The notes under the pieces are model-generated. The model searched no databases. It saw nothing but the letters and a program-made list of their open reading frames with translations, and had not been told where the DNA came from. A stretch of DNA of 50,329 nucleotides, from positions 1-50,329 of the forward strand of contig CAITLA010000065.1 in assembly GCA_903893135.1 (NCBI GenBank). Reading direction: 5' to 3'. Shown piece after piece: positions 4,460-34,112 of this stretch (the stretch's first letter is position 1; every line of letters starts with the position of its first letter). The translations under genes and the position numbers were made by a program. This DNA is from an uncultured Syntrophaceae bacterium (GTDB taxonomy: Bacteria; Desulfobacterota; Syntrophia; Syntrophales; UBA2185).

Positions 4460-4885
4460 ATGGAAGAAGAAAAAATAACAAAAGAAATGATGGAATTGCT
4501 TTTTGAAAAAACTAAGGGGCTTTTTTCAGAAAAAGTCATCGATTATGGAACGAACCCGAGGAATTACGGGGCGATTGAGAATCCTGAAGGATATGCAAAG
4601 ATCACCGGACCATGCGGTGATACTGTGGAAATATTTCTACGGGTGAAAAAAGGTAAAATTGAAGACATTCGATACACCACCAATGGCTGCATGACATCCC
4701 ATGCTGCGGTCTCTGCAGCTACCGTGATGGCGAAGGGAAAAGCCCCGAAGGACTGTATCAGAATTAACCAGAGTTCCATCCTGGACCATTTGGGAGGGAT
4801 GCCGGAAGACGCCAAGCATTGTGCTCTCCTTGCCGCCACAACACTGCACAGAGCACTTAGAAATTTTGCCGTCGGGAAAAAATAA
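4460..4885 (+). CDS. IscU/NifU N-domain-like Fe-S cluster scaffold protein
   Basis: The 141-aa ORF has three ligand-Cys contexts: GPCGD, NGCMTS and AKHCALLA. Confidence 0.85.
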   Translation: MEEEKITKEMMELLFEKTKGLFSEKVIDYGTNPRNYGAIENPEGYAKITGPCGDTVEIFLRVKKGKIEDIRYTTNGCMTSHAAVSAATVMAKGKAPKDCIRINQSSILDHLGGMPEDAKHCALLAATTLHRALRNFAVGKK

Positions 4886-5020: not shown

Positions 5021-6070
5021 ATGACCATGGCTGTACTGCAAAAATCCCTTGCCAATCATTTTGCTCGGTGGTGGGAATTCGAGCGGATGCCATGGCTCGA
5101 CTGGGTACAGGTTGAAGTCACATCGCGGTGCAACGCGGCCTGCACCTACTGCCCGAGAACAGTATACCGATCCAACTGGCTCGACACAGACCTTTCACTT
5201 GACAAGTTCGAGAGAATGCTTCCCCTTTTCGCCACGGCAAGGATGATTCATCTACAGGGATGGGGTGAGCCATTTCTGCACACTGGCTTCTTCGAAATGG
5301 TCGCACGTCTGAAGAAGATCGGTTGCAAGATAAGTACGACAACAAACGGTATGTTGCTCAACCGCCGGGAGATCGGCAGGCTCGTCGAGAGCGGTATAGA
5401 CCATATTGCGTTCTCTTTAGCAGGCATAGGCGAGAAGAACGACACTGTGCGCAAAAAGACAGAATACAGAACGATCCTTCAGGCCATTACCGACCTTGCT
5501 GCCGAGAAAAGGGCTCGTCGTGTCGATACGCCAACGGTCAACATTGCCTTCTTGCTCCTCCGCTCATATCTTCGAGACATCCACAGGATAATCCCGGCAT
5601 TCAAGGACCACGGGATAGAGCAGGTGATCATCAGTACCCTTGACTTCGTTCCGAGTAAAGACCTGCGGGAGGAGATCCTTGCGCCGGCAGATGAAAACAT
5701 GCACGACGAGTTGAAAACCCTGCTTGATGGACTGGTAAGGGAGGGTGACCGGGCAGGACTGAATATCTACTATCGACTGGTCTCGCCGGGAAAGAGAAGC
5801 CGCATCTGCACAGAAAACATCGAGAGAGCACTTTTTGTGTCTGCAGACGGCACCATCTCTCCATGCGCTTTCGCAAACATTTCTGCCTCAGGAATTTCCC
5901 ACATGGCAGGTGAGCGTGAAAAAGTATATCAGCGTCTTACCTTCGGCAATGCCACGGACGAGTCGATTCTTGCCATCTGGCAAAGTGAGGGCTACGCTTC
6001 GTTCCGAACTTCCTTCGATTCGAAGCTCCATCCAATCTGCCAGGGATGTCCGAAGCTGTATGAGGTGTAA
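5021..6070 (+). CDS. radical SAM protein with SPASM/twitch-like C-terminal Cys domain
   Basis: The 349-aa ORF has the CxxxCxxC motif (CNAACTYC) and GWGEPF. Its C-terminal Cys cluster is C...DGTISPC...CQGC. The start is uncertain; an internal Met at 5087 (MPWLDW) is also possible. Confidence 0.8.
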   Translation: MTMAVLQKSLANHFARWWEFERMPWLDWVQVEVTSRCNAACTYCPRTVYRSNWLDTDLSLDKFERMLPLFATARMIHLQGWGEPFLHTGFFEMVARLKKIGCKISTTTNGMLLNRREIGRLVESGIDHIAFSLAGIGEKNDTVRKKTEYRTILQAITDLAAEKRARRVDTPTVNIAFLLLRSYLRDIHRIIPAFKDHGIEQVIISTLDFVPSKDLREEILAPADENMHDELKTLLDGLVREGDRAGLNIYYRLVSPGKRSRICTENIERALFVSADGTISPCAFANISASGISHMAGEREKVYQRLTFGNATDESILAIWQSEGYASFRTSFDSKLHPICQGCPKLYEV

Positions 6071-6094: not shown

Positions 6095-6565
6095 CTATGA
6101 TTCCTCGAGCACATATCGCACCTTCATTTTCAAATCCTTGCGGAGGGAGTTATAAACAGAACAATACTTATCATGAGACAAGGATACGGCACGATCGACC
6201 TTCTGGGCATTAAGGTTCTTCCCTCCTATATACAAGACGATCTCAATGGCCTTGAAATACTGCGGTGGTGTCGGGTTTCGCTCTCCCATGAGTTCCATCT
6301 TGAAACTTGTCAGTGGGACCCTCATCTTCTGCAAAAACATTACAATGTCGATCCCCATGCAACCGGCGAGGCTCAGAAGCAGGGCCTCTGTCGGTTTGCA
6401 ACCCCATTGGGCATGGGCATCGAATTCTATCTCATATCCCTGTTGGGTCGTGCCCACAAAGATAAGATCCTTATCCCACGTCAGTGTCGTCTTTGTGATT
6501 GGTACGATTTTTTCCTTGTAGCCCGTGAGAGACTCTTCCAGTAAGTCTTTCTCTTCGCTTGGCAT
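6095..6565 (-). CDS. OsmC/Ohr family peroxiredoxin-like protein
   Basis: The 156-aa ORF has the two conserved Cys contexts LAGCMG and DKYCSV. Confidence 0.8.
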   Translation of the reverse strand: MPSEEKDLLEESLTGYKEKIVPITKTTLTWDKDLIFVGTTQQGYEIEFDAHAQWGCKPTEALLLSLAGCMGIDIVMFLQKMRVPLTSFKMELMGERNPTPPQYFKAIEIVLYIGGKNLNAQKVDRAVSLSHDKYCSVYNSLRKDLKMKVRYVLEES

Positions 6566-11010: not shown

Positions 11011-11487
11011 ATGAAGAAAAAACAAGGATCGCCGTTGTTACATGGGAGATTTAAGGGATACGGCTACCGGATGACCCAGGGCCGTGAGGCCATCATGAAT
11101 GCTCTGGCAGGTGCGAAGGATCATCTGAGCGCGGAAGACATCTATATGAAAGTTCATCCCGCCTATCCAGCTATTGGTTTGACATCCGTTTACAGAACTC
11201 TGGAGGTTCTTGTAAGCACCGGTCTGGTCTATAAGTTTGATTTTGGCGACGGGCGGGCCCGATACGAGATATCAGAAGGTCCCCGGGGAGAGGGGCACCA
11301 CCATCATCTGGTGTGCACGGGCTGTGGCCGTATCATTGACTATGCGGACTTTATTGATGAAGAATTGGCGCTCTTGAAAAAGACAGAAGCGGGGCTATCC
11401 AGGAAGTATAATTTCACAATCATTAACCATCTCATCCAATTTTACGGGTTCTGCCATAAGTGCAAGAATAGGAAAAATGATAAGTAG
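11011..11487 (+). CDS. Fur family transcriptional regulator (Fur/Zur/PerR type not resolved)
   Basis: The 158-aa ORF has a winged-helix segment (LTSVYRTLEVL), a metal site HHHHLVCTGCG, and a C-terminal CHKC. Confidence 0.85.
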   Translation: MKKKQGSPLLHGRFKGYGYRMTQGREAIMNALAGAKDHLSAEDIYMKVHPAYPAIGLTSVYRTLEVLVSTGLVYKFDFGDGRARYEISEGPRGEGHHHHLVCTGCGRIIDYADFIDEELALLKKTEAGLSRKYNFTIINHLIQFYGFCHKCKNRKNDK

Positions 11488-12361
11488 CCGTGCAGACAGG
11501 ACCATGCAAGTTTCAGGATTGATGAACCATTTTTGGCTTGTCCTTTTTTCGGAGGATGCTCTCAGGCAAGCAGCAGGGCTGAAATTTATCAGCCACATGA
11601 TAGATGACAGGCCATACTGGTATCTTTGGCATGCGGCGCACACCGGGGTATATGAACTCGATCTTCTCGGGGCGCAATCTATCAATGGCTACGACTGGCT
11701 GGCAGAATTTGTAATCAAGTATTACCCCCACAAAGACGAGCCGTGGCACGAGGGATTGTCCTTTCTGGAAAAGCGCTGCCGCGCAAGTGATGTCTTTCAA
11801 ACCCCGCCCTCGGCCGGAGGCGGCTGTCCCTGCCACAGCCTTTCTCACAGACATGAACAAGATCGATTCGCCGATCTTGCAGAAAGCACAGGCGCGCCCT
11901 CCTACGCCTGCAGGGATAGCATACCCCCGGATTTTTTCTATGCCGGCCATCTCTACATCGCTTTCAAAGACACTGTAGGCAGCATTATACGACTTAAAAC
12001 ACAGACGAGCTGGCAGGTGGCAATTACGAAGAACCACAGCATCAGAAATGGAGATGGTCAAGCTTTGACGTTTTTTAAAAAAGGCACCGTCGACCGAAAT
12101 TACCCCGGCTTCGCCATCAGTAATTTTATCTATCAGGGACTCGTAAAAAGTTGGTCTTCTTTTCATCAATACGAGGCCAATCGTGAACAGATTTGGAGGG
12201 GAGAAGGAGTAAGATTCTTAAACGACGGGAGGGACATCAAGACTGAGCCTTTCCGTAATATAAAGAGGATCATCGCCCAGACGGAATTGGTCTGCCGGGA
12301 GGAAGATGTTCTGGCCTTAGTGCCGGACGCTGATCTGGAAGGGATGCATTTGGAAAACTAA
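11477..12361 (+). CDS. hypothetical protein (first gene after fur, no family recognised)
   Basis: The 294-aa ORF overlaps the fur stop by 11 nt. I prefer it to the antisense 218-aa ORF because it is longer and continues the operon. The start is ambiguous; Met codons at 11504 and 11522 are also possible. Confidence 0.5.
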   Translation: MISSRADRTMQVSGLMNHFWLVLFSEDALRQAAGLKFISHMIDDRPYWYLWHAAHTGVYELDLLGAQSINGYDWLAEFVIKYYPHKDEPWHEGLSFLEKRCRASDVFQTPPSAGGGCPCHSLSHRHEQDRFADLAESTGAPSYACRDSIPPDFFYAGHLYIAFKDTVGSIIRLKTQTSWQVAITKNHSIRNGDGQALTFFKKGTVDRNYPGFAISNFIYQGLVKSWSSFHQYEANREQIWRGEGVRFLNDGRDIKTEPFRNIKRIIAQTELVCREEDVLALVPDADLEGMHLEN

Positions 12362-13631: not shown

Positions 13632-14885
13632 ATGAGTGCAAATGCTCTGGATACATTGTGGCTCGAGGAAAGATCGTTAACAAATCTGATTAAGCAACCT
13701 GCCATAAGAGGCATTCTCGATACGCTACTGGCCTTTGCCGTTTTCATGGGCCTCTGGTGGGTTTTCATGGATCCCCGTGGAGTCCTCCGCTGGTATACGC
13801 CCCAGTATGGTTATATGTACATTCGCTGGCTTCTCATCGTCGCCATCTGGCAGGCCTATATCTTCAACTTCTGGCCCTTCAAACTGACATGGATGGAAAA
13901 AACACACCCGCTTAAGAAGGGTCTAATCCTGATCGCGATCAATTTTGTGGTGACGGGTCTTCTCGTCTGGGTATTCTACTACAACATTTTCGGGAGACTG
14001 GCGATCCCGTACTTTAGCTGGCCGGAGCTGAAAAAGACGGGGCTTTCCGATTTCTTCTCCCGTGAATACTCATCTCTTGCCATTTTGATGATGGCGGCGA
14101 TTGCTTCCTGGTTAAGCCCTATCTGGCCCGCGGCATTCGAGAACTACCCTTGGCACAATCTGAAACAACCGGCTAAAGGATTCACAGTCTTTGCCGTAAC
14201 ATTTCTTCTCACTACCTATGCGTATCTCATCTTCATGCATCCACACTACCGTGTTCTCTTCTACCCCTGGCAGGAGTATACGGCGGCTTTCCCCTGGTGG
14301 TACGATTCCTTCCATACGCTGAGCGGCAATTTCAACGTCGGCTGGATTATGTGCGCCACAGTGTCCGTGTGGCTGCTGGAGACGATCATGGAACGTTATC
14401 CCTTCCGGCTGGTCAAGTCCCAGCCATGGCGGGGGCTGACAGGGTTCGCCTTCATTCTGCTGCTGGCCTGGATACTCTTTTTCACCTTCACCTTCATGCA
14501 GGACATGGTCTGGGGACCCTCCGTTGAGGGGGCGAAACGCCTCATGGCCCCCGACTGGCGTTATCTCCACAACGGGGAACTCGCCGTTATCCTCCTTACG
14601 GTAGCATTGGCTCTTTATTTCTACTTTGACAACTGGCCACGAAAGTTCAGCACGGAGGTGAACCTGCTCATCCGTGTGGCCATTACCATCATCGGAGCAT
14701 GGGGCATCCATTGGCTCTATTACAAGTACAGCCCCCAGCTCCTCGGCACGCAGGCGGGCTACTCCCATCCACAGCAATTTCCTATGGCGCCGGTAATCCT
14801 CTTCATCAACGTCATGTTGTACCATAACTGGTTCATGGACGGCTGGCCGGGTAAGCGCATAAAACAGGATTTGAAGGTTGCGTAA
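13632..14885 (+). CDS. polytopic membrane protein, Trp/aromatic-rich, uncharacterised
   Basis: The 417-aa ORF has GGGAGG 7 nt upstream of its start and many hydrophobic helices. It lies 21 nt downstream of the MBL gene. Confidence 0.75.
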   Translation: MSANALDTLWLEERSLTNLIKQPAIRGILDTLLAFAVFMGLWWVFMDPRGVLRWYTPQYGYMYIRWLLIVAIWQAYIFNFWPFKLTWMEKTHPLKKGLILIAINFVVTGLLVWVFYYNIFGRLAIPYFSWPELKKTGLSDFFSREYSSLAILMMAAIASWLSPIWPAAFENYPWHNLKQPAKGFTVFAVTFLLTTYAYLIFMHPHYRVLFYPWQEYTAAFPWWYDSFHTLSGNFNVGWIMCATVSVWLLETIMERYPFRLVKSQPWRGLTGFAFILLLAWILFFTFTFMQDMVWGPSVEGAKRLMAPDWRYLHNGELAVILLTVALALYFYFDNWPRKFSTEVNLLIRVAITIIGAWGIHWLYYKYSPQLLGTQAGYSHPQQFPMAPVILFINVMLYHNWFMDGWPGKRIKQDLKVA

Positions 14886-17059: not shown

Positions 17060-17602
17060 ATGACAAAAGAGGAAAAAATCGAGGAAATCCGTCAGCGTGC
17101 CCGCAAGAATTTTTCTTTAGGGTATAATTGTGCGGAATGCGTCACCGAAGCGGTTCTCAGTCTGGTGGATACGGGACTGCCTCCGGCAGTCAAAAAAGTC
17201 GCAACTGGGTTTGGCGGCGGCATAGGGCTTTTCGGAGACACCTGCGGCGCCCTGGCAGGGGCGGTAATGGCCGTGAGCGCCGTCCACGGCAGGGATTCAC
17301 TCCCTGAAGGAGCGGATCAAAAGGACGTGGCGATGAAGTCGAAGGCCCAGTTCTACGGCAAGCCCGGTGTTTACAGGATATTCAATCTGGTGCCCAACCG
17401 CTTCAAGGCGAAATATGGAAAGACCCTGTGCAGGGAATTGACCGTGCCGTGGCAGAGCACCTGGCTGTGCAAAGAACATGCGCTGTACTGTCGTGAGATT
17501 ATCACCGAGGTGGCCGGGATTGCGGCGGACCTTGTCCTGTCCGATAAAGATGAACTGGCAGCAAAGCCCTTCGGTGAAAACGTGGAAAACCTCAAGGATT
17601 GA
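17060..17602 (+). CDS. C_GCAxxG_C_C family (putative redox-active) protein
   Basis: The 180-aa ORF has the family Cys pattern (GYNCAECV, GDTCGALAG, LCRE, LCKEHALYC). AAGGAGG lies upstream of the start. Confidence 0.8.
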   Translation: MTKEEKIEEIRQRARKNFSLGYNCAECVTEAVLSLVDTGLPPAVKKVATGFGGGIGLFGDTCGALAGAVMAVSAVHGRDSLPEGADQKDVAMKSKAQFYGKPGVYRIFNLVPNRFKAKYGKTLCRELTVPWQSTWLCKEHALYCREIITEVAGIAADLVLSDKDELAAKPFGENVENLKD

Positions 17603-17665: not shown

Positions 17666-19000
17666 ATGAGTCAAAAACTGGTTATTGTAGGAGGAGGCGC
17701 GGCAGGCCCGTCTACGGCTGCCGAGGCCAAAAGACGGAACCCTTCTCTTGAAGTGACGATGATTGAGAAGGGTGACTTCGTATCTTATGCGGCCTGACCG
17801 ATGCCTTATTACATCGGTGATGTAATCAAAGAGTCAAAGAAGCTCGTTATCCGCACGCCGGAAGATTTCAAGAAGACGGGCATCGACGTAAAGATCAAGA
17901 CGCGCGTGGATGGTATCGATCCAAAAAAAGGTTCTCTTTCTTTATCCGACGGCACGCTTCTTCCTTACGATGTCCTGGTCATGGCGACAGGGGCCGAAGC
18001 GATCCGCCTGGATATTACGGGCGGAGACCTGGAAGGCGTCTACGTCTTGAGGAATCTAACCGATGCCTTGAAGATGAAAGCCTACCTGAACGAAAAAGGC
18101 TGCAAGAAGGCAGTTCTGATCGGGGCAGGCTATATCGGCATGGAGATGTGCGAGGCCCTGAGAAACCTGGGAATCGAAGTGAAGGTCATGGACATCCTGC
18201 CCCGGCCGGCCATTCGATGGGACTCAGAATTCACGAAGATGATAGTGGAAGAGCTGGCCAAGACCCAGGTGGAGTTCCGTCCGGAGACGAAACCTCAGGC
18301 CATCGAAAAGGGAAAGGATTACCGCTTGAAACTGCAAACCAGCGGCGGCGAACTGGATGCCGATCTCGTGCTGATGGGGGTGGGCACAAAGCGGAGCGCC
18401 GTGCTTGCCGAATCCATGGGACTTGCATTAGGGGAAAGCGGCGCCATCAAGGTGGATTTCCGGCAAAAGACATCCCGGGAAGGGGTCTATGCGGTGGGAG
18501 ACTGCTGTGAGGTCTTCCACAAGGTCGCCGGAAGATGGGTCTATTTTCCTCTCGGCGATGTCGCCAACAAGCAGGGCCGTGTAGCCGGTCAGAATATCGG
18601 CGGTTATCCGGCGGAATTTCCGGGCATCGTGGGCGCCCAGGCCTTCAAGGTCTTCAACTTGGAGGTGGCCGCCACGGGACTGACGGAAGAGGAAGCCGCA
18701 AAATACGGGTTCCAGCCTGTGAGTGCCATGATCTGGGGTCTTCCCGTAGGCCGTCCCATGGCTAAGGGGGAAAAGCTGGGCGTAAAACTTGTAGGAGACA
18801 AGACGACGGGGAAACTTCTCGGCGGCCAGTGCATCGGTGAGAAAGGAGCCGTTCAGAGGGTCAGCAGCCTTTCTGTCGCCCTGTGGGCGGGACTCTCCGT
18901 GGATGAGGTCGGCTACCTTGATCTCCCATACGCTCCGCCCTTCGGAGGCGCCTGGGACGCCATCCATATCGCGGCCCAGTCTCTCAAGGGCAAGATGTAA
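17666..19000 (+). CDS. NADH oxidase / CoA-disulfide reductase-like flavoprotein with UGA (probable selenocysteine) at the redox-Cys position
   Basis: The ATG at 17666 has GGGGAGG 7 nt upstream. The product begins MSQKLVIVGGGAAGPS...FVSYAA-[TGA 17795-17797]-PMPYYIG and continues in frame into the track ORF 17801-19000. The TGA aligns with the Cys of SYGACGLPYY in the paralog at 1333-3024. The FAD-binding GxGxxG exists only if the TGA is decoded. The total length is 444 aa. Confidence 0.8.
17808..17826 (+). promoter_or_regulatory. SECIS-like hairpin downstream of UGA 17795
   Basis: ATTACAT (17808-17814) pairs with ATGTAAT (17820-17826) around a CGGUG loop. This 7-bp stem starts 10 nt after the UGA. 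Confidence 0.6.
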
Positions 19001-21609: not shown

Positions 21610-21662
21610 TCTTTCATCTGAACAGGGAATTTGAAAACCGGAATTATAAAGGAGGAAATACC

Positions 21663-22367
21663 ATGAGCACACCCACAATGCTGGAGAAGGCGTTTCACGT
21701 CATCATGAAACGTATGGTAGAAACCGGGCAGGCGCCCTATTACACGGAACTTGCCGCTGAACTCGGGCTTCCCGTTGAGGAAGGCCGGAAGGTCACGCAC
21801 GATCTGTTCTCCTCGGGAATCCCCGCGTGGCTGTATCCCCGCACCGACCACATCGTCTCCTTCGCTCCCTTCAACAACCTTCCGACCCAATATCGAATCA
21901 CCATCGACGGTCAGCAGAAATGGTTCGGCCAGTGAGCATTCGAATCGCTGGCGGTCTGCTGGCTATTCCCTGGCAAGGCAGTGACGGTGGATTTCCCCTG
22001 TCTGGACTGCGGTGAACCTCTCAGTGTGGTCATCCGGGACGGGACGGTTCTGAACGACGAAGCCTCAGGGTACACGGCCTATGTAGCCGTACCCTTCTGG
22101 AAATGGTTTGAAGACCCGGGTTATGCTTGAAGCACCATGAATCTCTTCCGGTCGGAAGAGCACGCCCGCAACTGGAAGTCCTTTGTCCAAGGCACCGACG
22201 ATGGCATCCTGTCCTTGGCCGATCTGCGCAAACTATTCTCCGGGCCTTTCTTCAGGCGGCGGATGGATAAGGACTATTTGTCACACATGCATGAATATGC
22301 CCGCGAGATGGTCCAGGGCATGAAAGAAATTGGCAAGACCGGTCCGTTCTGGAAAAAGCCAAAGTAA
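21663..22367 (+). CDS. organomercurial lyase (MerB)-like protein with two in-frame UGA codons (probable double selenoprotein)
   Basis: Track ORFs 21663-21935 and 22137-22367 are in the same frame. The stretch between them has no other stop. The only interruptions are TGA 21933-21935 and TGA 22128-22130. The first context, KWFGQ-U-AFESL, aligns with MerB YAW-C96-ALD99-TL. The second, GYA-U-STMNLFRSEEHARNW, aligns with SF-C159-CHVHFFASVPTAEDW. The total is 234 aa against about 212 for MerB. Confidence 0.75.
21947..21963 (+). promoter_or_regulatory. SECIS-like hairpin after first UGA of merB-like gene
   Basis: GCUGGC (21947-21952) pairs with GCUGGC (21958-21963), using two G-U pairs, around a GGUCU loop. 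The stem starts 11 nt after the UGA. Confidence 0.5.
22143..22160 (+). promoter_or_regulatory. SECIS-like hairpin after second UGA of merB-like gene
   Basis: CUCUUCC (22143-22149) pairs perfectly with GGAAGAG (22154-22160) around a GGUC loop. The stem starts 12 nt after the UGA. As I recall it, the E. coli fdhF SECIS has the same apical loop sequence. Confidence 0.7.
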
Positions 22368-22402: not shown

Positions 22403-22440
22403 AACCCCGCCCGCCGCAGTGAGCGGGGTTTTGTTTCTTT
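22403..22440 (+). terminator. rho-independent terminator
   Basis: AACCCCGC (22403-22410) pairs with GCGGGGTT (22423-22430), followed by TTGTTTCTTT. Confidence 0.7.
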
Positions 22441-22571: not shown

Positions 22572-22955
22572 TTATTTCGCCTCATCAACCATCTTGATGG
22601 TTATTTCCTCAACCTCTTTAGCAACCTGCGCCAAGGCTGCATCCTGAGATAGGGCCGAAAGTATTTGCGTCGGTTTAATAAGGCCGATCATCGTCTTGCC
22701 CTTCTCCGTAAACACCGAGATACGACACGGCAGCGCCAAATTGAGGCGCATGTCATTTGCCAGAACTTTTGCAGCATGCCCCGGATTGCAGATTTCAAAA
22801 ATCTTGCACTGCTCTTCAAATGTAATGCCCTTACTGCGCAGCGTACTCCCCAAGTCATGAACATGCAGCACTCCGAAACCATTACGTTTGACTGCTGTTT
22901 CAAGGTCTGCCGATGCTTGATCGAATGATTTGCCGGTTTCGACTATGTAATACAT
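22572..22955 (-). CDS. DUF302 domain-containing protein
   Basis: The 127-aa ORF has the typical DUF302 layout (FGVLHVHDLGSTL...CNPGHA...LALPCRISV). Confidence 0.75.
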   Translation of the reverse strand: MYYIVETGKSFDQASADLETAVKRNGFGVLHVHDLGSTLRSKGITFEEQCKIFEICNPGHAAKVLANDMRLNLALPCRISVFTEKGKTMIGLIKPTQILSALSQDAALAQVAKEVEEITIKMVDEAK

Positions 22956-23596: not shown

Positions 23597-24808
23597 ATGT
23601 CAATAAAAGATAAAAAAACAAAATTACGCCATGCTTGTATTCTTGTCGTTATAGCCGTGAGCTCGATCTCTTTCTTTATTTCAGGTTGCAATAGAGAGCA
23701 GAAAAGCAACAATCCAACCCCACCCACCGTGCAAGTTGCAGACGTCGTCCAGAAAGATGTCCCCATGTATTCTGAATGGATCGGCACTACTGACGGCATG
23801 GTAAATGCCGTGATCCGTGCCCAGGTTCAGGGCTACCTCATCAAGCAGAACTATCATGAAGGCGATTTCGTCAGGAAGGGGCAGATCCTCTTCGAGATTG
23901 ATCAGCGCACTTTTCAGGCTGCCCTTGATCAGGTTAAAGGGCAACTGGGCGAGCAGAAGGCGCGGTGGTCTACGGCCAAAGCAAATCTGACCAGAATTAT
24001 ACCGCTCGCGGAACAAAATGCCGTCAGCAAAAAAGACCTGGATGATGCTACAGGGCAAGAACAGGCAGCTCATGCCGCAGTGATTTCTGCAGAGGCAGTG
24101 GTTGAGAAAGCCAGGCTGGACATTGACTTCACAAAGATCGTTTCCCCTATTGGCGGCATCGCCGGCATCGCCAAGACACAGATCGGGAACCTTGTCGGCC
24201 CTGGAGTGATAGAGGAACTGACAACGGTCTCCACAGTGGACCCTATCAAGGTCTATATTTCCGTTGGCGAGCAGGAATATCTCATAGCTACGGGCAAAGG
24301 CCGGAACGGTTTTAAAGACAACCCTCTGGAGATGATCCTCTCCGATGGAAGTGTTTATCCTCATAAGGGGAAGTTCACCCTTGCCGACCGCCAGGTGGAC
24401 GTGAAGACAGGAACCATCAGGGTGGCAGCCATCTTCAAGAATCCCGGTAATAATCTGCGCCCCGGGCAATTTGCCAAGATTCGCGCCAGGATCAAGATCA
24501 AAAACGCACTGCTGGTACCCCAGCGGGCGGTCATGGAGCTTCAGGGCAGTTATCGGATTGCAGTGGTGGATGCGAATAACAAAGTGGAGATACGGCCCGT
24601 CAAGGTGGCTGAACGTGTTGATGACATGTGGGTAATTGATGAAGGGCTGAAGGCCGGAGAACGGGTCGTGGCGGAAGGCGTCCAGAAGGTCAGGGAGGGC
24701 ATAATCGTAAATCCAATTCCCTATGGATCCGTACCCCAGTCAGCGACCGATCAGGCGAAAAAGGCCGAGGCAACGCCGCCGGCTCAACCCCAGGCGGAGA
24801 AGAGGTAG
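23597..24808 (+). CDS. RND efflux periplasmic adaptor (membrane fusion) lipoprotein
   Basis: The 403-aa ORF has a lipobox (FFISGC) and AcrA/MexA-like coiled-coil and barrel segments. It lies directly upstream of the RND pump gene. Confidence 0.9.
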   Translation: MSIKDKKTKLRHACILVVIAVSSISFFISGCNREQKSNNPTPPTVQVADVVQKDVPMYSEWIGTTDGMVNAVIRAQVQGYLIKQNYHEGDFVRKGQILFEIDQRTFQAALDQVKGQLGEQKARWSTAKANLTRIIPLAEQNAVSKKDLDDATGQEQAAHAAVISAEAVVEKARLDIDFTKIVSPIGGIAGIAKTQIGNLVGPGVIEELTTVSTVDPIKVYISVGEQEYLIATGKGRNGFKDNPLEMILSDGSVYPHKGKFTLADRQVDVKTGTIRVAAIFKNPGNNLRPGQFAKIRARIKIKNALLVPQRAVMELQGSYRIAVVDANNKVEIRPVKVAERVDDMWVIDEGLKAGERVVAEGVQKVREGIIVNPIPYGSVPQSATDQAKKAEATPPAQPQAEKR

Positions 24809-24814
24809 ACCGGC

Positions 24815-27800
24815 GTGGCGAAGTTTTTTATTAACCGTCCTATCGTTGCCATGGTCATATCGATCATGTTTGTCATTCTCGGAACCGTCGCGCTCGTGCA
24901 ATTGCCCGTCTCGCAATTTCCTGAAATAGTCCCGCCGGAGATCCAGATCAACACCATGTATGTAGGCGCCGACGCGTTGACGGTGGAGCAGTCTGTTGCC
25001 ACCCCCATCGAGCAGCAGCTGAGCGGTGTGGACAACATGAATTACATGTTCTCCCTGAACTCCAACATCGGCATAATGAGGCTCATCATATCCTTTGACG
25101 TCTCGACCAATCCGAATACAGACCAGGTTCTCACTCAGATACGGCAGAATCAGGCCGAGCCGATGCTTCCGATGGACGTGCGCAATTACGGAGTCACGGT
25201 CCAGAAATCCAGGTTTGCACCGTTGATGATGTTCTCCCTGTATTCACCGAATGAAACACACGATGCCGCTTTTCTTGCAAATTACGCATACATCAATCTC
25301 AGCGACCAGTTGCTCCGCGTCCCAGGCATCGCCATGGTTTCGATCTTCGGGGCAGGCCAGTACTCCATACGCATCTGGGTCAAACCCGATACCCTGGCAA
25401 AACTCAGCATCACAGTCCCTCAGATCATCGATGCCATCCAGAAGCAGAATACGGTAAATCCGGCCGGGCAGATCGGCGCTGAGCCTTCGCCTCCCGGGCA
25501 GGAATTTACTTATGCGGTCCGCGCCCAGGGACGCCTCATCTCCGAGCAGGAATTCGGCGAGATCATTATCCGGGCAAACCCGGACGGATCTATTGTCCGC
25601 CTGAAAGACGTAGCCCGCATTGATCTTGGGACGCAGGTTTATAACATCAGGGGCAGGCTGAACGGCAAGCCTGCCGCCAATATCGCCCTATACCAGTTGC
25701 CCGGGACGAATGCGATAGCGGCTGCCAAAGGCGCCAGAAAGGTAATGGAGGAGGCCAGGGATCGCTTTCCCGCCGATTTGGACTATGCGCTCGGTCTCGA
25801 CACGACAAGGGCAATCACCGAAGGAATAAATGAGATTGTCAAGACGCTCTTCATCGCCATAATCCTCGTCATCATCGTCGTTTTCATATTTCTGCAGGGC
25901 TGGAGGCCGACCCTCATTCCAACAGTTGCAGTTCCGGTCTCCCTCGTAGGCACATTTGCCTTCTTCCCCTTTCTCGGCTTCTCAATTAATACCCTGTCCA
26001 TCTTCGGCCTGGTTCTCGCCATAGGACTGGTTGTGGATAACGCCATCATCGTGGTGGAGGCAGTGGAACGGCACATGGATGAAGGGATGGCTCCGAAAGA
26101 GGCGGCGCTCAAGACAATGGAAGAAGTATCAGGGCCGATGATAGCCATCGCGCTGGTCCTGTCCGCTGTTTTCATCCCCACAGTGTTTATACCGGGGATT
26201 ACGGGCCGGCTCTACCAGCAGTTTGCTGCGACAATCGCCATCTCGGTTCTCATCTCGACATTCAATGCGCTGTCCTTAAGCCCGGCCTTGTGCGCACTCT
26301 TGCTCAAGCCGAAGTCGGATTCGCAGGGACCGCTGGGAAAATTCTACAGCCTCTTCAACCGCGCCTTTGGCCGTGCCACCAACGGCTATGTCTCCTTATC
26401 GGGCACACTCATCCGAAAGAGCGTCCTCAGCCTTGTATTCCTTGCCGGGATCACGGTCGTTTCCGGCGGTATAAGCAAGGCGATTCCCGCAGGCTTCCTG
26501 CCGGAAGAAGATCAGGGATACATGTTCATTAATCTGGCCCTGCCCGATGCAGCCTCTCTGCAGCGTACCGACGCGGCATGCAAAAAGATTGAGGAGATCC
26601 TTGCAAACACGCCCGGAGTGAAATACTACACGACTGTCGTCGGCGTGAGCCTGCTGAGCATCGTGCAGAACACCTACAGCGGGTTCTTTTTTGTGAATCT
26701 GAAAGAGTGGAAATACCGGGAAAAGCCTGAGGAGCAGTACGAGGCAATCATGGCCCATCTCAATCGGGAACTTGGCAAATTGCCGGAAGGGGTTGCCTTT
26801 GCCTTTTCACCCCCGGCCATCCCGGGGATCGGCACCGCAGGCGGTGTAACTCTTGTTCTTGAAGACAGGGCCGGCAAGGATATACCCTACCTAGCTGAGA
26901 ACGTGAATAAATTTCTCGAGGCTGCGCGCCAGAGGCCGGAGCTGGAGCGCGTGACGACGACCTTCCTGCCCGGTGTTCCTCAGATATTCATCAATGTGGA
27001 CAGGGACAAAGTGCTCAAGCAGGGCGTCGATTTGAGACAGGTGTACCAGACTCTTCAGACCTTCATGGGGGGATACTTCGTAAATTACTTCAACCGATTC
27101 GGCCGCCAGTGGCAAGTGTATGTCCAGGCGGAGGGAGAATATCGCAACAAGGCCGAAAAGGTAGGGCAGTTCTTCGTACAAAACGAAAGAGGGGATCCCG
27201 TGCCGCTCTCGGCGGTAACGACTATTGAATCGCGCACCGGGCCCGAATTTACGATGAGGTATAACCTTTATCGCTCGGCACAGATCAACGCTACGGCCAA
27301 TCCCGGTTATAGCTCCGCTCAGGCGATGAAGGCCCTCGAAGAAGTCTTTGCCCAGACAATGCCGAGCGAAATGGGCCTCGATTATATGGGCATGAGCTTC
27401 CAGGAAAAGAAGGCGCAGGAAGGAATACCGACATACGTCATCTTCGGGTTTTCGCTCTTGTGCGTCTTTCTAATCCTTGCGGCGCTGTATGAAAGCTGGT
27501 CGCTGCCTGTCAGCGTTCTTCTGAGCACGCCCGTAGCTGTTTTCGGCGCGTTCGTGGCGATATGGCTTCGCGGCCAGGTGAACAATATCTATGCCCAGAT
27601 CGCCCTCATTGTGCTTATCGGTCTCACTGCCAAGAATGCCATCCTTATCGTTGAGTTCGCGAAAGCGAAATATGAAGAGGGGATGTCCATTACAGACGCC
27701 GCCCTCGAGGGCGCCCGGCTGAGGCTCAGGCCGATTCTTATGACATCCTTCGCGTTCCTGTTCGGCGTATTGCCCCTTGCCGTATCCACGGGAGCGGGCG

Positions 27801-27964
27801 CTACTGCACGGCAGATCATGGGAACCGCCGTCATGGGAGGGACACTGGCTGCATCGCTGATCGCCGTCTTTCTCATTCCCGTGACATTCTATGTTGTCAT
27901 GGTTCTCTCCCACAGGAAGAAAAAAGATGACCGGCGGGAGAGCGAGGAAAAAAACGATGCGTAA
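24815..27964 (+). CDS. RND (HAE1, AcrB/MexB-type) multidrug efflux permease
   Basis: The 1049-aa ORF has a GTG start, the N-terminus [14 protein letters not shown], and 12-TM architecture with two large loops. Confidence 0.95.
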
Positions 27965-29423
27965 CATCATCATCTGCTCACTTCTGGCAATTGTCCTTTC
28001 CGGCTGCATGATGGGCCCGGACTACCGGAGACCGGCTGTGGAGACGCCTGCATCCTGGCGCTTTGAAGAAAAAGAGGCAAGAGAGATCGGCAATGCCGCA
28101 TGGTGGGAGCAATTCAACGATCCCGTCCTGAACTCACTGATTCAAACGGCATTGAAGGAGAATAAGGATGTCATGATTGCCACGGCGCGCGTGGAAGAAT
28201 TTGTAGGCCGATATGGCATTACTCGCGCCGCCATCTTCCCCCAGGCAGGCGCAGGAGCAGCTGTGGGCAGAAGCAGGGCCACGGACAACGGCCAAACTCC
28301 CCTCACAGACGCCACTATAAACCCTGCGGACAACTATTCCGCCACCCTGTATGCGGGCTGGGAAATTGACCTGTGGGGCAAGCTAAGGAGGGCGAAAGAG
28401 GCATCCCGTGCCGATCTCCTGAGTCAGGAAGAGGCACGAAGGGGCGTTATCCTTATTCTTGTAACCTCTGTGGCAGGCTCCTACGTGAACCTTCGCGACC
28501 TTGACAAACAGCTCGAGATTGCCAAGCGCACCGCACAGAGTCGTAAGGAGTCTCATGATCTTTTCCAGTTGCGCTTCCGGGGCGGCGTCATCTCCGAACT
28601 CGAACTGAGCCAGGTTAAATCAATGTATGAGCAGGCCCTCGCAATCATCCCGTTTCTCGAAAAGGCCGTTGCCCAGCAGGAAAACGCCCTCTCCGTCCTC
28701 CTCGGACGAAATCCCGGTCCTATTCCCCGGGGAAAGCGAATCGATGACCTTGTCCTTCCCGCCGTACCGGCGGGCCTGCCTTCAGAGCTCCTGGCCAAAC
28801 GTCCGGACATACGTCAGGCGGAACAGACCCTGATTGCGGCCAATGCGAGAATCGGCGTGGCGCGGTCACTCTACTTTCCGACTATTTCTCTCACCGGCAC
28901 GTATGGATTTGCGAGCAATGACCTCTCAACACTCTTCCAGGGTCCATCCAGAGCGTGGAGCTGGAACGTTCCTCTGAATGTGCCGATCTTCACAGCAGGA
29001 GCCATTGGTGGACAGGTCGAAGCAGCCGAGGCGATACAGCGGCAGGCCCTCATTCAGTATCAGCAATCCATCCAGAGGGCCTTTCGTGAAGTCGAAGACG
29101 CCCTTATTGACCAGAGGAGATCACGGGAAGAACTTGATATCCAGACGCGGCAGGTTGAATCTTTGCGCACCTACACTCGCTTCGCGCGTCTGAGATTTGA
29201 AAACGGCTACACGAGCTACATCGAGGTGCTCGACGCTGAGCGCAGCCTTTTCGACGCGGAACTTGCACGGGCTCGGACGGCAGGGGTTCTCTTCCAGGCT
29301 CTCGTGAACCTCTACAAGGCAATAGGCGGCGGCTGGGTCATAGAGGCGGATAGTAGGATTGCCTCGGACCAAGACAAGAAACCAACCTCTGATTTCAACA
29401 GAGAAACCGGCGCCATACACTGA
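27957..29423 (+). CDS. NodT/OprM-family outer membrane factor lipoprotein
   Basis: The ATG at 27957 overlaps the pump stop (ATGCGTAA) and gives [17 protein letters not shown], a lipobox, followed by MMGPDYRRP. The track start at 27891 would add an implausible 22-aa leader. Confidence 0.9.
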
Positions 29424-29940: not shown

Positions 29941-30474
29941 TTATTTCTTTTCATACGGCAATTCTTGTATAAAATTACGAAGACGCTTTTCTGCAAGTTT
30001 TGCCTTTTCCGGACTGGTGAATAGATCAATTAGAAAATCATCGATGCCTTGAAAAAATGCCTCTTTTAGAGCTGGAACAGAGACCAAGACTAACTCTTTT
30101 GATATAGTTGGGGCGTAACGCACTTCTGGCAGTGCTTTGTCCATATAACCCACCATTCGGCAAATTCCTTTTCTGCTCAAATTGGATATTACGCCGTATG
30201 AATGAAGCATCGCACAACGTGCTCCGTAAAGATCAAGTCCTGTTAACTGTTCTTGGCACGGGAAGTTTATATAACGTTCTGCCCAATCAACAAAATCATC
30301 TCTTGTTACGTCTTCTTGCTCAGCGGGCATGTTCAAATATGCCATCGAGTCTATACCAGAAAGAATCAGGATGACTGCCGCAGAAAGACAATTATTCTCG
30401 ATGCTGACTTGTATCCCTTTTTTGATTCCACCGTAAATTGCATTTATGATGGGATCCCTTAAGATGTCTTTCAT
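29941..30474 (-). CDS. hypothetical 177-aa protein, third gene of the AT-rich cassette
   Basis: The ORF lies 34 nt downstream of the 964-aa gene. The product looks soluble and helical. No family recognised. It contains one Rx4H string (GARCAMLHSYG). Confidence 0.6.
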   Translation of the reverse strand: MKDILRDPIINAIYGGIKKGIQVSIENNCLSAAVILILSGIDSMAYLNMPAEQEDVTRDDFVDWAERYINFPCQEQLTGLDLYGARCAMLHSYGVISNLSRKGICRMVGYMDKALPEVRYAPTISKELVLVSVPALKEAFFQGIDDFLIDLFTSPEKAKLAEKRLRNFIQELPYEKK

Positions 30475-30508
30475 ATCATTTCTTGCTTAAGTAAAGACTT
30501 GACCCTAT

Positions 30509-33403
30509 TTATATATCATAACGTGAGAGCAGATCTTGATATTCATAATATCTTCGACTCAACAAATAATTAACAAGATGTTTGACCACTTCTCTAATCT
30601 TAGGATCAGAGCTTTGAAAAGCCTTTGTCAATATCGTTCTTGTGTAATCACGCCATCCTAAAATACTCCAACCCTCTCTATCATGACGCGCAATCAATTC
30701 CAAACATTGGATAGCTTCTTTTGGCATCTTGTCAACAAGTACAGCAAGTCTTTCCATGATGAGATTATCTGACTGGGTCTTTCCGGATATCTCTAATGCC
30801 CTCATCATTTGATTGATAGCCCATTTATCATCGAATTTTTCAGAATAGAACCACCAACTAAAAGATCCCATTTCCTCACTATGCTTACCAGGTTCCTTTT
30901 CCGCTTCACCGTGCCTTGTTTCCCAGAGATTTCTTAATCGTAATAGAACTTCAGGTGGCACTTTTCCCACAGTATTTTTAAGACTCCGCCCTATGAACTC
31001 TATAGCGTGGCCCCTAACTGTTGCAGGAGCTTCATTCCAAAAACGGTTGAAAAGACCTTCAGGTTCATCCATCTCAAGTTTTCCTCGCCAGTAGAACGTC
31101 ATTAAATGCTCAGCGAGTCTTTGATCAGGATCAGCAAGCCGTTTTTCACCTTCCCTGATTTCTCCGAGATGCTCAACGGCGTTTTTGTACTGGTTTCCTA
31201 AGATATCAAAGACATTATTATAAGGCGCGCAAAAGTATAAATAGGCTTCCCATGCTGCATCTTTATATGCCCGATCATGCGGGTCGGTAGGGAATATTTC
31301 GGTAATATGATTTTTCGACCATACTGGATCAAGAAGCACTAACCATGGGAACCAACGGCCATAGACCGAACGGATGGCCAGCGACGAGTCCTTTGAGGTG
31401 TCAAGATGCTCTTCAAGGACTTCACGAACTTCTGACATTGCTTCAAGACCGCGGTTTAAATTTATCTCTTTGTCCGGCAACCGTTGTAAATGCCGACGAA
31501 TCCATAAGGCATACAGAATAACTGCATTCATTGCTTCGCCTCGAACAGAGTTAATAGCTAGTGTGGCAGGATCCATACTCTTGGATTTTTTGTAGCCATC
31601 TTCTGTCTCAGGCGACGGATCAGGATCTTTCGATAAAATATAGAGAATTTTCCAAACTTCTTTACGTTTATTTATTCTGATTTGTCCAATGCCCTTTTGA
31701 ACGCCCATCTCAAGCAGATTGGCAATATGCCTCCGTGTCCAGCCCCAGTCAGGGTCTATATCACGAATCGAGATATCCCGATCTGGAATTTCACGAGGTT
31801 GCTTCACCACCCAAATACATAGCTTCAAAATAGCTGACCACTTGACCTTTTTTTTCTGTTTCAAAGATTCCTCAAGTCCTGAAATACAAGCACGTACATA
31901 TGTGGGGTCAAGACCAATGAATTTGTCAGCTTCGGTCGAGAAACGAACTGGATCTTTTGCAATGACAGAAGACAACATACGACCAAAGCCTTCAGGAGAT
32001 GATGTCATTGATTCACCTGACGGTTGCCATGACCCTAAGAAATCTATAATCAGGTCGACGGACATCTTTTCTATCTCGTCGGAACTCTTGGGACTCCTTG
32101 GACCGACCCATGTACCACTACTGTACCGGGCAAAATCTGTATGTGCCGGTTCGCCATATATTCGGATTAATAATTCGTAGCGTTCTTTCCATTTACCCGA
32201 AAGATGTTCCTTAAACCACACAAGATGATCCCTTTGCCATGTCTCACGATAGTCGACAAGTTCTTCTTTAGAAGGGCGATTACCTGACGTTTTTTCTCTA
32301 AATTCTGCATAATCAGTCAAATCAGGCCCTTCATCTATCCAGTTAAAAATGACATTCTCCTGTTCTTCACTAAGCTTACCAAAGTGCTTGCCGAGAAGGA
32401 GTGCATACTCATGGGTCATGCTAATGTCATCGAACAGTTCTCTGTCCATCATTTGGGCAGTCAAAATTTTATGTGAAGTATCTGGGAACAAGCGCAGAAT
32501 GTGAAGCGCGATACGGTGGAAAATTTTCCACGGCCGTTTTTCAAAAAGAAGTATAATTTCTGGAATCTTTGTTACATCAGTACGAGCAATAGTTTCTGCC
32601 GCATCCCGAACAGCCGGAACCAAGACATCCTTGATGCTGTAAGTATGATTTTGAGGGTTATCTTCAATCGCGGGACGCCAGATATAGGAATAATCTTCAT
32701 ACACTACTTCATTACGCCGTTGGGATAGATGCACAGCTGATTCAAGAATGTCACAAAGAAGGATTAATGCCCTCATGCCAGCAGCTTCGACAAGAACTGG
32801 AATATGGTTTTTCACTATTTGCTCGTATACCCATTTTTCAAATCGAGCTATCGGTTGAGGAGGAAGGAGGTAGAGATTATTCTTTTCATGTTCAATTTCT
32901 CGTTTTGGATCCGGAAGAACTTCCAAGAGTATAGTCGCAAGTTCGAGCGCTTCGTCAATTTGACCTCCTTTGGCAAGATGTGCCACCAGAGAGCCAAGTT
33001 TTTCTGGCAAAAGAAGATGATAGCGGGAGAGAGCCCATTTTTTGATCTTTTTAATCAAGCGGGCAGCAATTGGTGGGGGCATTTGAAGTGTTGCATCAGC
33101 AAGATCCTCATAAACACGGACATTATCGGTATCTGCCATTTCAAAAATGATTTTACAAACTAGATCAGGTTTTAAGGATGCGATTCTTGCTAAATATCGT
33201 GACTCCGGCCATACTAGAAATTGGATATACTCTCCTTCTCTTTTTAGGGGTGGTGGATCACTAAACATCTTAGCTTCCCATAAATGTTCTAGCCAATCGG
33301 CTGATTTCAAATTATTAAAGAAATACTCGTAATTTGCATAAATCTTGAATGTCTTTAATGCTTTTTGTACAAGCTCTTTCTTAGGTGTTGGCATCACCTT
33401 CAC
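30509..33403 (-). CDS. hypothetical 964-aa protein, probably an all-alpha repeat scaffold
   Basis: This is the longest ORF in the AT-rich segment, and no comparable ORF exists on the other strand. Its start overlaps the upstream 243-aa gene by 23 nt. The product is rich in W, Y, L, E and K. I see no TM segment, signal peptide or catalytic motif. Confidence 0.8.
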   Translation of the reverse strand: MKVMPTPKKELVQKALKTFKIYANYEYFFNNLKSADWLEHLWEAKMFSDPPPLKREGEYIQFLVWPESRYLARIASLKPDLVCKIIFEMADTDNVRVYEDLADATLQMPPPIAARLIKKIKKWALSRYHLLLPEKLGSLVAHLAKGGQIDEALELATILLEVLPDPKREIEHEKNNLYLLPPQPIARFEKWVYEQIVKNHIPVLVEAAGMRALILLCDILESAVHLSQRRNEVVYEDYSYIWRPAIEDNPQNHTYSIKDVLVPAVRDAAETIARTDVTKIPEIILLFEKRPWKIFHRIALHILRLFPDTSHKILTAQMMDRELFDDISMTHEYALLLGKHFGKLSEEQENVIFNWIDEGPDLTDYAEFREKTSGNRPSKEELVDYRETWQRDHLVWFKEHLSGKWKERYELLIRIYGEPAHTDFARYSSGTWVGPRSPKSSDEIEKMSVDLIIDFLGSWQPSGESMTSSPEGFGRMLSSVIAKDPVRFSTEADKFIGLDPTYVRACISGLEESLKQKKKVKWSAILKLCIWVVKQPREIPDRDISIRDIDPDWGWTRRHIANLLEMGVQKGIGQIRINKRKEVWKILYILSKDPDPSPETEDGYKKSKSMDPATLAINSVRGEAMNAVILYALWIRRHLQRLPDKEINLNRGLEAMSEVREVLEEHLDTSKDSSLAIRSVYGRWFPWLVLLDPVWSKNHITEIFPTDPHDRAYKDAAWEAYLYFCAPYNNVFDILGNQYKNAVEHLGEIREGEKRLADPDQRLAEHLMTFYWRGKLEMDEPEGLFNRFWNEAPATVRGHAIEFIGRSLKNTVGKVPPEVLLRLRNLWETRHGEAEKEPGKHSEEMGSFSWWFYSEKFDDKWAINQMMRALEISGKTQSDNLIMERLAVLVDKMPKEAIQCLELIARHDREGWSILGWRDYTRTILTKAFQSSDPKIREVVKHLVNYLLSRRYYEYQDLLSRYDI

Positions 33404-34112
33404 CCGCCCTGATTATAGATTTGATCAAATTTAAGTCGGCATAAGTATGAGGTTGCAATCGATCTAGGAAAAATCTTTCCATAGTATGCAACCAAGATTC
33501 GAATTCCACAATATTTGTTAGTTTATCGTGATGGCACACACGAAGAAAATAGTCTCTAATAAAACCCCATTCATCAACACGGAGTTCTTCAATGGGTGAG
33601 GGTAAAGAAAGACCTGTTGGATCGAGGGTTCGTATTAACTTTGCTACTCTAGTCTTAAACTTCGGCCTACTCTCTTTAAACCATTCAAAGAACTTACTGT
33701 ACGCTTTTAAGAATTTTTTTAAACGAACTTCATCCAGTTCGCTACAATCGTCAATCTTTTTTACACCTTTTATAAGCCTATTCCACTCTTTCCCAAGGTT
33801 ATCGACTTTATTGCTCATCTTCTCTGAGCTATAAGGGTCCTTCAGTTCCACATCCATATATGAAGGAGCTTTAGCCATGAGCTCACGCATATTATGGGCT
33901 GATAGAGAAAATCTATCTGGATTAGTTTCATCTTTCAACACCATTAAGGCACCAAGATACATATCAGCTAATAGTGAATTCTTACTTAACAAGGCATCGT
34001 ATAATGCTTTTTGTTGACCATCAAGCTGTGGTGGCTCAGCAATTGGAGGTTCTGGACCTCTAACCTTTTCTAACAAACTACTTTGAGGATTCGATTTGTC
34101 GTGTTTTTTCAC
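33381..34112 (-). CDS. hypothetical 243-aa protein, first gene of the AT-rich cassette (GTG start)
   Basis: An ORF translationally coupled to the 964-aa gene. No family recognised. It contains an Rx5H string (NPDRFSLSAHNMRELM). Confidence 0.6.
   Translation of the reverse strand: MKKHDKSNPQSSLLEKVRGPEPPIAEPPQLDGQQKALYDALLSKNSLLADMYLGALMVLKDETNPDRFSLSAHNMRELMAKAPSYMDVELKDPYSSEKMSNKVDNLGKEWNRLIKGVKKIDDCSELDEVRLKKFLKAYSKFFEWFKESRPKFKTRVAKLIRTLDPTGLSLPSPIEELRVDEWGFIRDYFLRVCHHDKLTNIVEFESWLHTMERFFLDRLQPHTYADLNLIKSIIRAGEGDANT

Follow-up and report, generated by a model that had tools for sequence, protein, structure and literature searches.

The window, by which we mean the whole stretch of DNA that was analysed, is a contig of 50,329 nucleotides (CAITLA010000065.1, assembly GCA_903893135.1) from an uncultured Syntrophaceae bacterium, and the gene considered here occupies positions 21663-22367 of its + strand. 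The gene is a single reading frame, which starts at the ATG at 21663, 7 nucleotides downstream of a Shine-Dalgarno sequence AGGAGG (21650-21655, + strand, by sequence reading), and ends with the TAA at 22365-22367. Its only internal stops are two TGA codons, one at 21933-21935 (codon 91, called UGA1 below) and one at 22128-22130 (codon 156, UGA2), and when both are translated the joined product has 234 amino acids, from Met1 to Lys234. This product would contain selenocysteine (Sec) at positions 91 and 156, together with a glutamate at position 94 and the two cysteines, 113 and 116, of a CLDC motif. Each UGA is followed, still inside the coding sequence and on the same strand, by a hairpin that resembles a selenocysteine insertion sequence (SECIS). 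Hairpin 1 (21947-21963) begins 11 nucleotides past UGA1, and its stem GCUGGC/GCUGGC, with six pairs of which two are G.U (21947-21952 with 21958-21963), carries the loop GGUCU (21953-21957); an extension of the lower stem to 21942-21968 occurs in the window sequence only. Hairpin 2 (22143-22160) begins 12 nucleotides past UGA2, and its stem CUCUUCC/GGAAGAG, with seven Watson-Crick pairs (22143-22149 with 22154-22160), carries the loop GGUC (22150-22153). One short gene thus holds two SECIS-like elements, 195 nucleotides apart. The preliminary description of the locus had claimed this layout; re-reading of the sequence returned the same frame, with two in-frame TGAs only and a product of 234 residues, and both hairpins, with their spacings of 11 and 12 nucleotides, were found again as minimum-free-energy folds of the local RNA. 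We consider it very probable, from the comparison of genes set out below, that the gene encodes one protein of MerB fold with two selenocysteines and two functional SECIS elements.

A search at the protein level gave 281 relatives, and a scan of species-representative genomes gave relatives at 553 or more places. The best 80 of these at least 553 places were examined, and they belong mostly to metagenome-assembled genomes (MAGs) of Syntrophales, Smithella, Desulfobacterales, Desulfarculales and Desulfomonile, with a few from Poribacteria, Abyssobacteria, Dehalococcoidia and Adiutricales; the closest among the matches listed are Syntrophales MAGs, with 91-92% identity, which makes this order the probable source of the window. 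An independent scan of metagenomes, seeded with 155-residue forms of the protein, gave 80 genes, and the MerB-like family is frequent in metagenomes from peat, wetland, aquifer and sediment. When the codons at the two sites are compared in 165 related genes, with mutual identities of 55-92%, both sites have TGA in 150 genes, 13 genes have a cysteine codon at site 1 and TGA at site 2, and two have cysteine codons at both. Taken one at a time, site 1 has TGA in 150 genes and TGC or TGT in 15, and site 2 has TGA in 163 of the 165 (161 of them with flanks sufficient for scoring). Separated by source, the window gene, the contig L001 and the genome loci have TGA/TGA in 83 of 84 cases, the remaining gene being TGC/TGC, and the metagenome set has TGA/TGA in 67 and Cys/TGA in 13 of its 80 genes.

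Each of the 150 double-TGA genes stays in frame through both TGAs and keeps the conserved motifs as far as a C-terminal PFW, and the residue that precedes Sec156 is Ala, Ser or Thr across the family. None of these genes ends at its first TGA, an outcome that would have spoken for ordinary termination there. In the databases of translated proteins the same family looks different: among the 120 best clusters the calls at site 1 and site 2 are Cys/stop in 63, Trp/Trp (really TGA/TGA) in 51, Cys/Cys in three and something else (Ser/stop, Gly/stop, Trp/Leu) in another three, and site 2 is a stop, or a stop read through, in about 97% of the clusters. By parsimony on a neighbour-joining tree of 161 genes, cysteine and selenocysteine have replaced each other at least four times at site 1 and at least twice at site 2. 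The claim that UGA specifies both catalytic cysteines thereby acquires a comparative basis, with TGA/TGA kept in 150 of the 165 genes and cysteine at these positions in other homologs.

The hairpins are coding sequence as well as RNA, and their conservation can be followed in the choice among synonymous codons, which was analysed in 137 distinct double-TGA genes at codons with a conserved, degenerate amino acid. The relative synonymous entropy has a mean of 0.29 for the 10 hairpin codons, against 0.86 for 54 others (Mann-Whitney p = 7e-6). In hairpin 2, arginine is CGG in 134 of 134 distinct genes, serine is TCG in 131 of 132 and phenylalanine is TTC in 136 of 137, and the codons of the His, Asn, Thr and Arg residues on its flanks are free to vary. 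In hairpin 1 the codons TCG (117/120), CTG (121/135), GCG and GTC are likewise synonymously frozen. The pairing itself was scored in a genome set and in a mainly metagenome set, the two alignments of the latter including four and two hand-picked variant genome sequences. For hairpin 2 in the genome set, 97.9% of the cells are paired, against 43-62% when the stem is slid, and 19 cells have two-sided changes (0 of 500 shuffles); in the mainly metagenome set 98.8% are paired, against 46-62%, with compensatory changes in five of the seven pairs (0 of 500 shuffles on all measures). For hairpin 1 the corresponding values are 99.8% against 12-62% in the genome set, where the hairpin is almost invariant and has no compensatory change, and 99.5% against 15-60% in the mainly metagenome set (0 of 500 shuffles), where its outer G-C pair is flipped to C-G in 13 sequences of a second clade. 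To exemplify how pairing survives a change of the protein, the double change from Leu(CUG)/Trp(UGG) to Pro(CCG)/Arg(CGG) in L067 preserves it, as does that from Leu(CUC)/Glu(GAG) to Cys(UGC)/Ala(GCA) in L016, and in the Cys/UGA clade Phe UUC has become UUU together with Glu GAA to Lys AAA, again with pairing preserved.

Genes in which a site has cysteine serve as controls. Of the 150 UGA1 genes, 148 have hairpin 1 with its stem complete, as against only 2 of the 15 genes with cysteine at site 1, where the median is three of six pairs, and a GGUC-type loop is found at hairpin 1 in none of these 15. In the UGA genes, loop positions 2 and 3 at site 1 are invariantly GU, and the site 2 loop is GGUC in 151 of 161 genes. 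One gene with cysteine at site 2, L002, has lost hairpin 2, with five of seven pairs and the loop GAUC. Both hairpins are clearly under selection at the RNA level, as judged from these comparisons, and the SECIS-like character first proposed for them from the window sequence now has comparative support in the maintained pairing, the frozen codons, the compensatory changes and the loss of hairpin 1 from genes with cysteine.

Four observations weigh against the two-Sec reading. When the two hairpins are folded as single sequences and compared with shuffles, their z scores are unremarkable, -0.58 and -0.47, and since the lone folds are no better than shuffled sequence the case for the hairpins rests on the comparison of genes. 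There are two site 2 Cys controls only, L002 and L164, because the Cys/Cys protein P0100 has no contig on record. The second of these controls (L164:1430-2146, protein P0048, TGT/TGT) has both hairpins intact, with 6/6 and 7/7 pairs, from which follows that the peptide FRSEEH may partly hold hairpin 2 in place; this gene fits a recent conversion of Sec to Cys by single-base changes. Finally, no selA, selB or selD was found within the 50-kb window by Pfam annotation of 41 of its open reading frames (ORFs), and no tRNA of any kind, tRNA-Sec (selC) included, was found there.

Some genes of the family are irregular in other ways. At L163:310-312 (P0025), TCA for serine replaces UGA1 by a single G-to-C difference, with hairpin 1 fully intact and UGA2 kept, which may reflect either a mutation that has recently inactivated the gene or an error of base calling on a contig of 1 kb. 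In L122 and L125, about 22-28 nucleotides past UGA2 (near 4490), a one-base insertion in the loop of hairpin 2 (CGGGTCGG instead of CGGTCGG) shifts the frame after STMNLFR, as would a pseudogene or an assembly error common to two metagenome contigs. Several genomes have two double-Sec paralogs: L033 has adjacent tandem copies, with UGA1 at 5391 and 6271, and paralogs also occur in the MAG pairs L029 and L050, L035 and L065, and L024 and L079.

The relation to MerB, the organomercurial lyase (EC 4.99.1.2), was examined through sequence and through fold. With U written as C, the joined translation matches Pfam MerB (PF03243) over residues 72-188 with 63.5 bits, against a gathering score of 27 (E = 2.5e-17), and the TGAs fall on the catalytic cysteine columns. 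In phmmer alignments with chains of the Protein Data Bank (PDB; 3f2g, 1s6l, 5c17), codon 91 is placed on C96 of MerB, E94 on D99 and codon 156 on C159, which reproduces the alignment given in the preliminary description. The only sequence relatives among solved structures are MerB2 (5C17, the best, E = 1.6e-6) and MerB (3F2G, 1S6L and others). The fold was assigned through P0033, a naturally occurring Cys/Cys homolog that shares 55% identity with the window protein. The AlphaFold2 model of P0033, built from an alignment of 40 sequences, has a predicted local distance difference test score of 93.2 and a predicted template-modelling (TM) score of 0.88, and when it was compared by Foldseek with the PDB, 11 MerB or MerB2 chains were recovered with E values from 1e-9 to 2e-6 and TM scores up to 0.69; beyond MerB and MerB2 no PDB match had an E value under 0.2. 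By profile match and modelled fold, the protein is a member of the MerB superfamily. The description "MerB-like" accordingly stands at the level of the superfamily, by Pfam and by fold, but does not extend to true MerB, since the protein fails the equivalog models of that enzyme and is accompanied by no mer operon. The canonical signature of Cys96, Asp99, Cys117 and Cys159 is replaced here by Sec, Glu, Cys and Sec, residues whose chemistry is analogous.

From the positions of these residues a mechanism may be proposed. By analogy with the bacterial Sec pathway, SelB carrying Sec-tRNA(Sec) would bind each hairpin as the ribosome reaches the corresponding UGA, and Sec would be inserted instead of termination taking place. 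In the finished protein, Sec91 and Sec156 would take the positions of the metal ligands and nucleophiles C96 and C159 of MerB, and Glu94 that of the proton donor D99. The two selenolates, deprotonated at neutral pH, would then clamp the soft metal or metalloid of an organometallic compound, most likely an organomercurial such as methylmercury, and Glu94 would protonate the leaving carbon, as in the protonolysis by MerB. A much higher affinity for the metal would be fitting in anoxic peat and sediment, where concentrations are at trace level. The chemistry is plausible, as cleavage of Hg-C bonds has been described for a selone mimic of MerB, and demethylation of methylmercury for selenoamino acids (PMC10114901). 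We regard it as possible, without its being the probable outcome, that cleavage of the Hg-C bond is the physiological reaction; the wider proposal, that the family consists of diselenol organometal lyases and accounts for a mer-independent breakdown of methylmercury, or of other organometals and organometalloids, under anaerobic conditions, we consider unlikely.

Several results count against a lyase. The NCBIfam models of canonical MerB are failed by a wide margin (31.9 bits against 193 for NF009710 and 24.6 against 200 for NF033555). The residue at the D99 position is Glu, not Asp, in the window protein and in 115 of the 120 database clusters, with Asp in the other five. No merA, merR, merT or merP was found among the window genes scanned, and when the neighbourhoods of 163 loci are clustered, no neighbour family is present in more than 12 of them. 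A bis-selenolate complex of Hg(II), as the expected product, would be extremely stable and hard to release, and its stability argues against turnover in the absence of some acceptor. Since the equivalog models are failed and a mer operon is lacking, lyase activity and substrate, and with them the term C-Hg lyase, are something that we infer only by analogy with MerB.

These points lead directly to the best of the alternatives, in which a protein of MerB fold with two Sec residues is not a lyase at all, but either binds a soft metal such as Hg(II) or Cu(I) with very high affinity, as a trap or a chaperone, or uses its two Sec residues as a diselenide/diselenol redox pair. We find this doubtful, and treat it nonetheless as a serious rival, because there is neither MerA nor another partner and because the product of a lyase would be hard to release. 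It gains from the absence of a mer operon and of any conserved partner, from bit scores far under the MerB equivalog cut-offs, and from the general chemical consideration that binding of Hg by Se would hinder turnover. In addition, copper binding is known from variants of MerB, and the one protein to which MerB is structurally related, NosL, is itself a Cu(I) protein (PMC8261052; PMC10114901). The window, finally, is rich in genes for thiol, redox and metal homeostasis and has an RND efflux pump, which would suit such a role. The neighbourhood is, however, unconserved outside close relatives. Against the alternative stands further that an acid is strictly kept at the D99 position, as is needed by a proton donor but not by a chelator, and that the whole MerB core fold with its substrate pocket is kept in the model of P0033.

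The neighbours in question are an isochorismatase-family gene 5' of the MerB-like gene, separated from it by a gap of 53 nucleotides, a Sec-containing NADH-oxidase-like gene, a C_GCAxxG_C_C protein, two HpaB/AbfD-family genes, a fusion of coenzyme A (CoA)-disulfide reductase and rhodanese, OsmC, NifU, Fur, DUF302 and a three-gene RND efflux pump. The genes for thiol, redox and metal homeostasis are located at 1333-3024 (-), 6095-6565 (-), 4460-4885 (+), 11011-11487 (+), 17060-17602 (+), 22572-22955 (-) and 23597-29423 (+). This arrangement is common to about six close relatives only, and the ten recurrent neighbour families scanned across the 163 loci are redox and metabolic proteins, with no mer genes among them. 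As the neighbourhood is unconserved beyond close relatives, context says little about function.

The decoding of both UGAs, on which the proposed chemistry builds, has alternatives of its own. In one of them only UGA2 specifies Sec, and UGA1 terminates translation or leaks, the sequence of hairpin 1 being kept by the peptide SLAVCWL that it encodes. It is true that Sec is found at site 2 in about 97% of the database clusters, whereas site 1 has Cys in about half of them, and that hairpin 1 is near-invariant in the closest genomes, where two-sided changes are lacking. A product ending at residue 90 would, however, miss the entire catalytic domain of MerB, and 150 genes have kept the TGA at site 1 together with an intact frame downstream of it. 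A constraint on the peptide, moreover, is at odds with the frozen codons of hairpin 1, with the G-C to C-G flip of its outer pair in the second clade (0 of 500 shuffles), and with the loss of the stem in 13, and of the GGUC-type loop in all, of the 15 genes with cysteine at site 1. Taken together, this makes the alternative very improbable.

The proposal that both TGAs are true stops, in a pseudogene or in three small ORFs, agrees with gene callers, which give pieces of about 90, 63 and 76 amino acids, fragments of a kind that is abundant in databases; we give it next to no credence and reject it, since 150 genes, drawn from many orders, have TGA at the same two columns and a protein that is conserved across and after them, exactly these columns are Cys in other homologs, and no separate ribosome-binding site precedes the middle piece. 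Equally negligible is an alternative genetic code in which UGA means Trp or Gly, for which the 51 of 120 clusters translated with Trp at both sites would speak, and which is rejected as contradicted by stop-codon usage: TGA is the normal stop of 11 of the 35 Pfam-supported genes in the window, so that there is no genome-wide reassignment of UGA, the hosts, Thermodesulfobacteriota and similar groups, use the standard code, homologs carry Cys and not Trp at the catalytic positions, and the Trp calls stem from short contigs whose DNA has TGA.

The window contains another gene with an in-frame TGA. The frame 17666-19000 (+) has TGA at 17795-17797, within GDFVSYAA-U-PMPYY, and its product aligns to the NADH oxidase 6RUZ (E = 2.7e-92) with the UGA on the redox-active cysteine. 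It is a second predicted selenoprotein gene in the window. The product belongs to the NADH oxidase/CoA-disulfide-reductase family, of which the ORF listed at 17801-19000 is the C-terminal part only, and a hairpin directly 3' of the TGA has z = -1.93. An automated scan of the window for further genes with in-frame TGA gave only out-of-frame or antisense artefacts. Downstream of the MerB-like gene, 43 nucleotides past its stop codon, a consensus scan places a terminator-like G+C hairpin with a T-run at 22410-22437 (+), which is weak evidence because such sites are no commoner in the region than in shuffles. A search of Rfam gave no match at gathering thresholds and, at E values up to 10, only two chance-level matches, both on this terminator. 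For five sizeable ORFs Pfam gave no match at E <= 1e-4; they lie at 29941-34112 (-), 11477-12361 (+) and 13632-14885 (+), and among them an ORF of 964 amino acids at 30509-33403 (-) is flanked by same-strand ORFs of 177 and 243 amino acids.

How a family of this size can be overlooked is seen from its appearance in databases. An exhaustive profile search recovered dozens of representatives that stop precisely at profile position 90, as well as some that stop near position 155 and some that begin only at 159. The DNA of one database Trp/Trp protein was checked, P0017 (L001:402-1100), and it has TGA at both sites. In the clusters P0001-P0051, which are 51 of the 120, the proteins appear as full-length with Trp at both catalytic positions. 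Gene calling with TGA as Trp on short contigs disguises selenoproteins as Trp proteins in this way. Surveys of MerB, in turn, miss the two-Sec family because they require Cys96, Asp99 and Cys159 (PMC8261052). The family, as predicted here, is widespread in anaerobic bacteria but hidden by annotation.

Selenoprotein biology would in any case gain a family whose members combine two Sec residues with two SECIS elements. To our knowledge, MerB is the only enzyme that cleaves the Hg-C bond of methylmercury. The two-Sec family occurs in peat, wetland, aquifer and sediment, habitats that set net methylmercury, and if its members are lyases, they provide a concrete candidate gene for anaerobic demethylation of methylmercury and, at the same time, a natural test of how Sec in place of Cys at both ligands affects organometal chemistry. 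Should the wider proposal of a diselenol lyase be true, the enzyme would sit in the same guilds of Syntrophales, Desulfobacterales and Dehalococcoidia that make methylmercury, and its two selenolates would enable it to capture and cleave a substrate present at picomolar levels. The mechanism of anaerobic demethylation has been described as unresolved (PMC10114901).

It remains to compare the gene with known systems, and we begin with its RNA elements. In a SECIS of the E. coli fdhF type, a hairpin about 11 nucleotides after the UGA, within the coding region, has a small apical loop with conserved G and U. The hairpins described here are similar in that they lie in the coding sequence, 11 and 12 nucleotides past the UGA, and have small loops of the GGUC type; they differ in that one gene has two separate elements and in that no bulged U was identified in them.

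Canonical MerB (plasmid R831b; 3F0O, 3F2F, 1S6L) has in common with the window protein the fold, the three active-site columns and a buried cysteine, C117, which corresponds to C113 here. The active-site residues themselves are Sec, Glu and Sec instead of Cys, Asp and Cys, an extra Cys116 makes a CxxC motif, the protein is longer by about 35 C-terminal residues, and neither a mer operon nor MerA is nearby. MerB2 (5C17) is, like the window protein, an active-site variant of MerB with an unclear physiological role, but it has Ser99 with Cys96 and Cys159, contains no Sec, and is found in Firmicutes beside canonical MerB (PMC8261052). The main survey of MerB (Christakis et al. 2021, PMC8261052) was filtered for Cys96, Asp99, Cys117 and Cys159, and the only variants that it describes are 99Ser and 117alt.

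The nearest known selenoprotein is SaoL (NF040728; Haft & Gwadz, bioRxiv 10.1101/2022.07.06.499078 / J Bacteriol 2023), a MerB-like organometallic lyase of the SAO locus with an inferred function. SaoL has about 213 amino acids, a single Sec in a Cys-Sec dipeptide, Cys99 and Asp102 kept, and an operon of nine genes (10.1101/2022.07.06.499078). The window protein resembles it in its MerB-superfamily fold (PF03243), in Sec at the C159 position, in its occurrence in strict anaerobes and in being truncated at UGA in databases. The differences are considerable. The window protein scores 30.9 bits with the SaoL model, against a cut-off of 140; it has Tyr-Ala-Sec-Ser and no Cys-Sec, and differs further by a second Sec, aligned to C96, and by Glu aligned to D99; and the nine-gene locus, with the ABC transporter SaoB/P/X, SaoC, SaoT and SaoE, is absent from the window, where the neighbours are unconserved. 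In the selenoproteome reviews of 2022 and 2026, SaoL, with one Sec, is the only MerB-like entry, and the table of the 2026 review, with 119 families, includes those of Haft & Tolstoy 2025. A two-Sec MerB-like family is not among these 119, and has no match in NCBIfam 20.0, deep-Sep, the BSepDB main text, the Haft & Gwadz preprint or the survey of Christakis et al. 2021. The comparison with selenoprotein catalogues that the preliminary description had proposed therefore yields two answers: a MerB-like selenoprotein with one Sec was known, in SaoL, and a member with two was not found in the catalogues compared. A MerB-like selenoprotein whose Sec lies at the C159 position is known already; what is new in the predicted protein is the second Sec, at the C96 position, and a different subfamily of the MerB superfamily in which it occurs.

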